This document shows positions 28,988 to 29,426 of a DNA stretch of 64,000 nt, in pieces. The stretch comes from Pyrinomonadaceae bacterium (GTDB lineage: Bacteria; Acidobacteriota; Blastocatellia; Pyrinomonadales; Pyrinomonadaceae), in the NCBI GenBank assembly GCA_035249365.1, contig DATFGP010000022.1, forward strand, positions 192,013 through 256,012, given 5' to 3'. The translations under genes and the position numbers were made by a program. The notes beneath the pieces were generated by a model. It searched no databases. It was not told where the DNA came from and saw nothing but the letters and a program-made list of their open reading frames with translations. Position 1 is the first letter of the stretch; each line of letters begins with the position of its first letter.

Positions 28988-29020
28988 ACAGTGACGAGTG
29001 ACAAGTGACAAGTGACGAGA
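28988..29020. repeat. Left arm of an R4 foldback element whose loop carries a protein gene
   Basis: CAGTGACGAGTGACAAGTGACAAGTGACGAG. Pairs with the right arm at 29384-29426. Confidence 0.8.
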
Positions 29021-29382
29021 TAAAAACAAGCGGTTATAAAGATTTGCTTGTGTGGCAAAAGGGCATTGCTTTAGTAAAGCAGGTTTATCGAATCACTGAC
29101 GTGTTTCCCTCGGAGGAAAAGTTCGGCCTTGTTTCACAAATGCGCAGAGCCGCAGTTTCAATACCTTCGAACATAGCAGAGGGACAGGCGCGCCATACCA
29201 AAGGAGAATTCGTACAATTCATTTCTCACGCGGAAGGCTCAGTTGCAGAGTTAGACACACAACTAATAATCGCTGTTCAACTGACTTATTGCACGCAAGC
29301 GCAAGCCGACAGCGCATTTGAACTTATAACGGAGTTGCGGAGAATGCTTAATGCCCTACGCAGAAAGCTCACAAGCACTTAG
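29005..29382 (+). CDS. Four-helix-bundle protein (23S rRNA intervening-sequence protein family, TIGR02436-like)
   Basis: [20 protein letters not shown]...[27 protein letters not shown] are family hallmarks. Probably starts with a GTG inside the repeat arm. Confidence 0.8.
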   Translation: [125 protein letters not shown]

Positions 29383-29383
29383 T

Positions 29384-29426
29384 TCCTATGGCTTTCACTT
29401 GTCACCTGTCACTTGTCACTCGTCAT
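29384..29426. repeat. Right arm of the same R4 element
   Basis: GGCTTTCACTTGTCACCTGTCACTTGTCACTCGTCATCG. Its complement provides the D-E-stop of the zapA-like gene. Confidence 0.8.

Follow-up and report, generated by a model that had tools for sequence, protein, structure and literature searches.

Heptamer-repeat arms around PF05635 four-helix-bundle genes: an ORF-bearing hairpin cassette in a Pyrinomonadaceae bacterium and its relatives

What is a gene of the PF05635 four-helix-bundle family, known from intervening sequences (IVSs) of 23S rRNA, doing in a hairpin between two protein-coding genes, and how is it related to the many hairpins around it that hold no gene? This question is raised by a 64-kb stretch of a contig from a Pyrinomonadaceae (Acidobacteriota) metagenome-assembled genome, DATFGP010000022.1 (positions 192,013 to 256,012), which we call the window and to whose numbering all coordinates without a locus label refer. 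The element in question is a palindromic cassette of 439 bp on the + strand (28988-29426), consisting of a left arm, a PF05635 open reading frame (ORF) and a right arm, and it was delimited by its sequence, an inverted-repeat search, RNA folding and the GC profile. We propose, with a probability of roughly 60%, that it is a promoter-less cassette of the IVS type that is expressed by read-through in an mRNA context, and that the short hairpins are its ORF-less relatives.

The GC content of the cassette is about 46%, as against about 62% in the flanks. The left (5') arm (28988-29024, +) reads C AGTGACG AGTGACA AGTGACA AGTGACG AGATAAA and the right (3') arm (29393-29426, +), which is complementary to it, reads TTTCA CTTGTCA CCTGTCA CTTGTCA CTCGTCA TCG. 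Each arm is made of four to five AGTGACR heptamers and both were detected as period-7 tandem arrays. The inverted pair 28992-29024/29393-29425 is 33 nt long and 88% complementary, with 368 nt between the arms, and an arm core of 26 nt (28990-29015/29395-29420) is 92% complementary; the outer end of the right arm is eroded, with CATCG where CACTG is expected. TGA is present in all three sense-strand frames of the left arm. In the predicted RNA fold a terminal stem of about 38 bp closes the entire element (dG -142.4 kcal/mol, z -3.65), and this stem is found in both the minimum free energy and the centroid folds. The cassette thus has the terminal inverted repeats that form a long stem around the insert in IVSs, and like the ORF-bearing 23S IVSs of Leptospira, Coxiella burnetii, Xanthomonas and Brucella it holds a PF05635 ORF in the loop of the stem, in the sense orientation and without a promoter. 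Unlike these IVSs, which lie in helix 9, 25 or 45 of 23S rRNA, it has a protein-coding gene on either side, one for an LTD/Big_2 protein and the other zapA, and Rfam found no rRNA in the 64-kb window. It also differs from the 23S IVSs in being accompanied by a genome-wide family of ORF-less hairpins with the same arms.

The sequence-only reading of this locus had placed a 125-aa ORF (29005-29382, +) between two arms of an abundant hairpin family. The sequence is as it stated, except that the start codon actually lies inside the left arm; it is a GTG, no other in-frame start precedes the conserved domain, and this ORF is the only sizeable one between the arms. The assignment of the ORF to the TIGR02436/PF05635 family was confirmed by HMM searches, with E values of 3.8e-37 for TIGR02436 (126.8 bits against a cutoff of 24) and 1.9e-39 for PF05635 (134.6 bits against a cutoff of 33.8, positions 1-106 of the 106 of the profile), and the protein also matches the subfamily NF008911 (142.2 bits against a cutoff of 137). 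It has the RxxxSxxxNxxE motif described for the PF05635 family (PMC3936711), and its pI of 7.9 is near neutral, the family median being 8.3. Among solved structures it is most closely related to XCC0516 of Xanthomonas campestris, a pentamer to which it is homologous (2GSC, E 5.2e-27, residues 11-121), and a pentameric state is predicted for it as well. Profile searches recognised no nuclease, recombinase or transposase domain in it, and the 64-kb window contains no second PF05635 gene. The public assembly of the same contig has no gene call for this ORF (L115 2017-2446, which corresponds to window 28986-29415), probably because the GTG start lies in a repeat, and because the ORF is uncalled there, an exact database look-up of the protein gave no record. 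Family counts taken from called proteins must therefore miss such copies; at 50% identity (E <= 1e-3) the family has at least 22,690 clusters.

Avd is a nucleic-acid-binding pentamer that acts with RNA flanking its own locus, and the predicted fold of the window protein is that of Avd. This raises the question whether the gene is itself the Avd of a diversity-generating retroelement, as its weak similarity to the bAvd/Avd models (PF22296 and NF033474) might indicate. The scores are, however, under both curated cutoffs (33.3 bits against 40 and 34.6 against 80), and no reverse transcriptase is annotated near the cassette in the window or in its orthologues, the annotated neighbours being the LTD/Big_2 protein, ZapA, ThiG and Band_7. 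In addition, a PADLOC search of the protein came back empty. We rejected the Avd identity on these scores and give it next to no chance. The window protein is like bAvd in its homologous, pentameric four-helix-bundle fold, and unlike bAvd it is encoded by a stand-alone gene in a hairpin, with no template or variable repeats. A function in defence or in phages was also rejected because PADLOC gave nothing and the sole match in PHROGs was the Avd family (2.5e-11).

Is the heptamer-arm layout peculiar to this genome? A scan of one genome per species gave 585 confirmed relatives, and 80 loci were kept, which come from Acidobacteriota, Verrucomicrobiota, Planctomycetota, Bacillota, Bacteroidota, Desulfobacterota, Proteobacteria, the candidate phyla radiation and others. 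At 79 of these loci the 200 nt upstream of the gene were aligned to the reverse complement of the 200 nt downstream. Period-7 inverted arms were found at 53 of the 79 loci when scored strictly and at 61 when scored leniently, compared with none of 237 control positions taken from these loci. These results show that the heptamer-arm layout is typical of the PF05635 gene family across phyla, an architecture that the sequence-only reading had missed. That reading had also taken the position outside rRNA as unusual, when it is in fact ordinary for the family: a 23S rRNA motif was found in none of the 97 loci fetched, and thus it is the rRNA location that is the exception for PF05635 genes. Cyanobacterial plasmids share the layout, and in Nostoc edaphicum eight GTAGGGA-type units stand opposite four TCCCTAC units. 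Heptamer arms are also present at 8-9 of the 17 viral-contig loci that code for relatives of the protein (IMG/VR, L098-L114), among which four similar loci (L103-L105 and L113) form an armless group. Phages or prophages could ferry the cassette between hosts.

The repeat unit varies by locus (TTAGTGG, CTAGGGG, CCAGTAG, TTTTCGG, GGACAGT and others) around a loose consensus, yTAGTGg. AG occurs in 53 of the 61 sense-strand heptamers of the 5' arms, whereas 30.6 would be expected from composition, and G exceeds C in 51 of the 5' arms and C exceeds G in 6. The AG content and the bias of G over C mean that, with respect to the gene, the polarity of the unit is fixed. Stop codons are frequent in the purine-rich 5' arm on the inward-reading strand, with at least one frame stopped at 52 of the 61 loci and all three frames at 31, whereas random heptamer arrays of the same composition have them in about 22 and about 20 loci, respectively. 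TAG is found in 35 arms and TGA in 21, and the opposite strand of the same arm is near the random expectation. Since 7 is not a multiple of 3, a stop codon within the unit is presented in all frames by three successive units. These stops may let the cassette sit directly on the end of a gene, but it is equally possible that they are a by-product of the AG preference. A strict code in which each protein has its cognate heptamer was rejected because the overall correlation of protein identity with the heptamer is zero; protein identity is raised only among loci with identical or one-off heptamers. Without such a code the protein, if it recognises the arms, must read something generic in them, be it the AG core, the duplex or the period of 7 nt.

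We turn now to the hairpins of the window. When up to 2 mismatches are allowed, the sequence GTGACRAGTGACRAGTGAC has 33 matches in the window and none in 100 shuffles, and these matches make up six short hairpins and the long one that bears the ORF. There are 14 heptamer hairpins in the 64 kb, all of them intergenic and most within a few nt of a stop or start codon, so that they have the tandem 7-nt units, the intergenic position and the many copies of heptamer simple sequence repeats (SSRs) and short tandemly repeated repetitive (STRR) sequences. AGTGACR arms are found in 7 of the 14, the long one included, and the rest belong to the GTCAGTT/GTCCGTT, GGGAAAG and AGGGATG families. Loop lengths are bimodal, being at most 61 nt in all hairpins except the ORF-bearing one. 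The hosts are housekeeping operons with nuoB/C/D/E/N, yceD-plsX, thiolase and 3-hydroxyacyl-CoA dehydrogenase genes and a metH-like gene. The six short ORF-less AGTGACR hairpins lie next to yceD (9094-9181), between the genes for a TPR protein and 3-hydroxyacyl-CoA dehydrogenase (11023-11113), beside the thiolase gene (13718-13805), after a SAM-II riboswitch and ahead of the metH-like start codon (21661-21751), in the nuoC-nuoD spacer (37301-37424) and after a nuoN-like gene (54459-54552). The SAM-II aptamer (RF00521, 41.2 bits) is at 21525-21600 and the metH-like gene starts at 21757, which places the hairpin 21661-21751 inside the riboswitch-controlled leader. None of the heptamer hairpins matches an Rfam family.

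The long and short AGTGACR copies share not only the arm unit but also a degenerate fifth heptamer, AG[A/T]TAAA, followed by ..ACAAG or ..AAAAAC, which bears out the earlier claim that the arms of the long element are homologous to those elsewhere in the window. The hairpin at 11023-11113 has an inner flank, AGATAAACGACAAG, that differs little from the long element's, and the short loops keep the first ~14 nt of the long element's interior. The short copies share termini and inner flanks with a longer copy whose protein has no transposase domain. The history of the two forms can be followed at the orthologous site between the LTD gene and zapA, which was compared in seven related contigs and occurs in four states. 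The long cassette is present in the window, L081, L084 and L089; L091 has the same outer boundaries but keeps only the outer two heptamers of either arm, around an inner palindrome that is unrelated, and has no ORF; L093 has solo direct AGTGGGA/AGTAAAC repeats; and L094 has an unrelated sequence of 675 nt. The inner palindrome of L091 (3514-3644), about 20 nt (GAATGGTAAATTCGTGAATA/TATTCACGATTTACCATTC), lies between the remnant heptamers. In a distance tree of ThiG plus ZapA, which is based on few differences, the long form is on both sides of the root and L091 is nested among long-form genomes, and therefore the parsimonious account of the zapA site is that a long ancestor lost its ORF. The short copies had been suggested to be non-autonomous derivatives of a longer element, or else the protein to act on the hairpins, and this reading is supported in part. 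Derivation is possible, as L091 shows for the zapA site; mobilisation of the short copies by the protein, and its action on the hairpins, are conjectural. No consistent target-site duplication was seen at the 13 junction pairs examined.

The reverse order of events, in which the hairpins are older, independent repeats and a mobile ORF invades their loops as it does those of rRNA helices, would make the short copies targets and not derivatives. A composite at L087 (9974-10452) looks like such an event, since a left arm and ORF are followed there by a complete short hairpin (10373-10452), the ORF stop being in a heptamer. Short hairpins are stable in orthologous nuo spacers over a dS of ~0.9, heptamers diverge independently of the protein beyond ~30% divergence, and no ORF-bearing copy of the other families (B, C and D) is present within the window, nor was a long family-B element found in two exact-pattern scans of metagenome contigs, which had low power. 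Yet relatives 75-94% identical all keep AGTGACR arms and the same fifth heptamer, at three unrelated sites and in another phylum (L001), and this means that gene and arms travel together. The long form that spans the root at the orthologous site, with the ORF-less form nested, and the ~14 nt of long interior in the short loops also speak against invasion, which we consider unlikely. The traffic between the long and the short form probably goes both ways, to judge from the sequences of L087 and L091.

Is the gene under selection? Between the window gene and its orthologues at the same site in L081, L084 and L089, dN/dS is 0.04-0.06 at a dS of 0.6-0.9, which indicates a protein that is both produced and of consequence. 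Between these orthologues identity is 91-97% in the left arm, whereas it is 64-76% at third codon positions. The nuoB-C, nuoC-D and nuoD-E spacers hold short hairpins, the AGTGACR hairpin at 37301-37424 among them, that are kept at orthologous positions in L084, and orthologous short hairpins show paired arm changes, as from GTCCGTT/AACGGAC to GTCAATT/AATTGAC, which reflect either selected pairing or the copying of one arm from the other. A signature of selection at the RNA level was sought in the stems, and among 1565 stem pairs G:U (G:T) mismatches (45) were no more frequent than A:C mismatches (49), so that there is no signal either way.

The system may instead have been domesticated by the host, such that the hairpins set differential stability or processing along operon transcripts, the PF05635 protein is a trans-acting binder and the whole is no longer selfish or mobile. 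Besides the strong purifying selection on the gene and the conservation of hairpins with compensatory changes, the location of hairpins in spacers of housekeeping operons (nuo, plsX/yceD and fatty-acid genes) and the orientation of the family-B loop, which follows transcription, would fit such a role. It is difficult to reconcile with the variable occupancy of the zapA site among close relatives (long, ORF-less, relic or unrelated), with cassettes in many unrelated operons, including cas operons, and in phage contigs, with a cassette GC content markedly below that of the host, and with the same arms in another phylum. Domestication is in our view doubtful.

How would a gene in the loop of such a hairpin be expressed? 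No sigma-70-like promoter was found in 28600-29800 and no intrinsic T-tract terminator in or around the cassette. Across loci, the spacer from the arm to the start of the domain has a median of 34 nt, and since about 34 nt leaves no space for a promoter, we infer that the cassette is expressed by read-through. In the window the likely source is the upstream gene, which encodes a protein of 1648 aa with PD40, Big_2 and LTD domains (24039-28985, +); the left arm begins 4 nt after its TAA stop. At heptamer-arm loci, 52 of 57 upstream neighbours are co-directional with the cassette, which is significant (P = 4e-4) even against a background of 72% co-orientation, and the gap from the upstream stop codon to the arm is mostly <30 nt and sometimes negative. 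The downstream neighbour is co-directional in 47 of 59 and lies a few nt away. At two other sites occupied by close relatives (75-79% identical, with AGTGACR arms), one between genes for an ECF sigma factor and a Ser-Thr kinase and the other between genes for an ABC binding protein and a permease, the cassette is in the sense orientation and the stop codon of the host ORF, a TGA, belongs to the arm. Host genes terminate within the arms in the window, L087 and L088. In the window, this gene is zapA (29416-29940, -), which is convergent with the cassette and has its last codons and TGA stop (29416-29428) from the antisense strand of the right arm; by comparison with L081 (4426-4440), a 12-nt deletion fused the end of zapA to the right arm.

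The position between convergent genes is one where a terminator would be expected, and T or A runs flank some of the short copies. Furthermore, G-quadruplex (G4) formation has been shown for GGGAATC heptamer arrays (PMC4692102). If the arms were such a structural motif, an intrinsic terminator or a G4 repeat, then the gene between them would be incidental. But AGTGACR has no G runs and thus can form no G4, there is no T tract 3' of the long stem, and 47 of 59 cassettes precede a co-directional gene by a few nt, where termination would be harmful. Since the association of arms with the gene is also far above chance, this explanation is highly improbable.

The proposal of an IVS-type cassette in an mRNA context would work as follows. 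The cassette would be transcribed by read-through from the upstream gene, and its arms would pair in the RNA as a duplex of ~33-38 bp which, by analogy with rRNA IVSs, where this was shown by experiment, would be a substrate of RNase III. Cleavage would free the ORF-containing loop and would insulate the host mRNA. Host translation would be ended, whatever the frame, by the stop codons of the arms, and for this reason insertion at gene ends would be tolerated. The many short heptamer hairpins of the genome would be ORF-less relatives that persist in operon spacers. The predicted pentamer, a homologue of Avd, probably binds the heptamer arrays through the shared AG core or their periodic shape and not through the heptamer as a whole; this is the weakest step.

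Several points weigh against this proposal. RNase III cleavage is carried over from rRNA IVSs, and the absence of an excess of G:U over A:C mismatches means that constraint on the RNA is not favoured over constraint on the DNA. Some cassettes are antisense to their neighbours, as at nrdB/nrdA in Nostoc edaphicum. Proteins that are ~70% identical can carry unrelated heptamers. Neither a target-site duplication nor a catalytic domain was found that could explain the spread of the cassette, and the scans for a long family-B element were negative. Although the start codon is buried in the stem in the lineage of the window, the candidate start is >12 nt inside the loop at 49 of 61 loci; burial as a general rule was thus rejected, and translational control by the stem is not general. 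Finally, the IVS protein of Coxiella went undetected in vivo (PMC4990558), and this fits poorly with purifying selection as strong as that on the window gene.

The Coxiella 23S IVS is the rRNA counterpart of this layout. It has a 28-bp stem, its 5' arm contains two or three GACAGAT heptamers in tandem, depending on the strain, and it is excised by RNase III (PMC4990558). Its ORF has been reported as decaying, whereas the window ORF is under strong purifying selection. In a literature search, mostly outside subscription journals, no paper was found to connect the PF05635 family as a whole with heptamer arms, and prior notice is possible; the heptamers of Coxiella have been remarked on for its own IVS and not for the family. 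In X. campestris, 186 arrays of the heptamer GGGAATC have been described, with 70 pairs in convergent inverted orientation (Rehm et al. 2015, PMC4692102). The position of these arrays is conserved between species and they were read as G4 formers; XCC0516 and the S23/four-helix-bundle proteins are unmentioned there (PMC4692102). We find a gene of the XCC0516 type, 86% identical to 2GSC, in the sense orientation between accB and accC of X. campestris, with GGGAATC-type units to its left and ATTCCC(C) units to its right, and further GGGAATC hairpins occur within 20 kb of this locus. X. campestris therefore repeats the pattern of the window, one ORF-bearing copy and many ORF-less copies with the same heptamer.

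How does the cassette compare with other repeats? Like the cyanobacterial STRR sequences, the Xanthomonas GGGAATC arrays and the Nostoc GGGGAYT arrays, the hairpins of the window are intergenic, consist of 7-nt tandem units in high copy number, often in inverted pairs, and are conserved in position between related genomes. The heptamer SSRs have, however, been described without a link to a protein gene and as G4 formers, which the AGTGACR units cannot be, and in other hosts than Acidobacteriota. MITEs (miniature inverted-repeat transposable elements) and repetitive extragenic palindromes (REP/BIME), with their insertion sequence (IS) elements and RAYT transposases, are similar in that short intergenic palindromes share their ends with a protein-coding relative and that ORF-less forms arise by internal deletion. 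Unlike these, the window protein has no DDE, HUH or serine/tyrosine recombinase domain, there is no target-site duplication, the ends are tandem heptamers, and the copies are old and positionally conserved and not recently transposed.

The remaining hairpins of the window are of other kinds. The family-B hairpins, with GTCAGTT/GTCCGTT arms, lie at 3800-3922, 36659-36764, 38638-38735 and 48057-48178 and share an oriented loop of about 40 nt that is conserved (CAAGTTGCTAAAGAT) and whose direction matches that of the host genes in all four window copies; those in nuo spacers are kept at orthologous positions in L084. The GGGAAAG hairpins, with arms of up to 60 nt, and the AGGGATG hairpins are found at 6665-6747, 18919-19046 and 45789-45881; in another Pyrinomonadaceae metagenome-assembled genome (L007) a PF05635 gene has AGGGATA arms. 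A hairpin at 23696-23800, between the metH-like gene and the LTD-protein gene, has 45-nt arms that are 96% complementary and consist of units of 8-9 nt (CGCAGAGGA/CGCAGAGA), not heptamers. The ORF at 41370-42386 has a third-position GC of 0.45, compared with 0.7-0.8 in its neighbours, and is possibly recently acquired or mis-called.

A CRISPR association has been ascribed to PF05635 genes, such as the one that Pleurocapsa has between cmr3 and cmr2 (PMC3936711, PMC10910872). Their presence within cas operons fits a habit of insertion into operon spacers, and this offers a simpler explanation than a link with CRISPR. Heptamer arrays might also be mistaken for CRISPR-like repeats.

On a wider view, which we put forward tentatively, PF05635 genes and heptamer hairpins might together be one widespread, unrecognised class of promoter-less cassettes that occupies operon spacers and rRNA helices throughout the bacteria. 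Its ORF-less descendants would then be the source of the excess of heptamers seen as cyanobacterial STRR sequences, as Xanthomonas GGGAATC arrays and in this acidobacterium, and the pentamer would recognise periodic AG arrays and drive their maintenance or spread, possibly in the manner of Avd by recruiting a polymerase to structured RNA. The regularity of the heptamer arms, if it is new, concerns a very common object, as the number of family clusters given above indicates. X. campestris, for which there are both the solved XCC0516 (2GSC) and a published census of GGGAATC arrays, provides a culturable model. If the proposal is true, then it joins the puzzle of the ORF-bearing rRNA IVSs and their conserved protein, open since the early 1990s, and bears on the over-representation of heptanucleotide tandem repeats in many bacterial genomes and on the presence of PF05635 genes in many unrelated operons, including the cas operons in which they have been scored as 'CRISPR-linked'.

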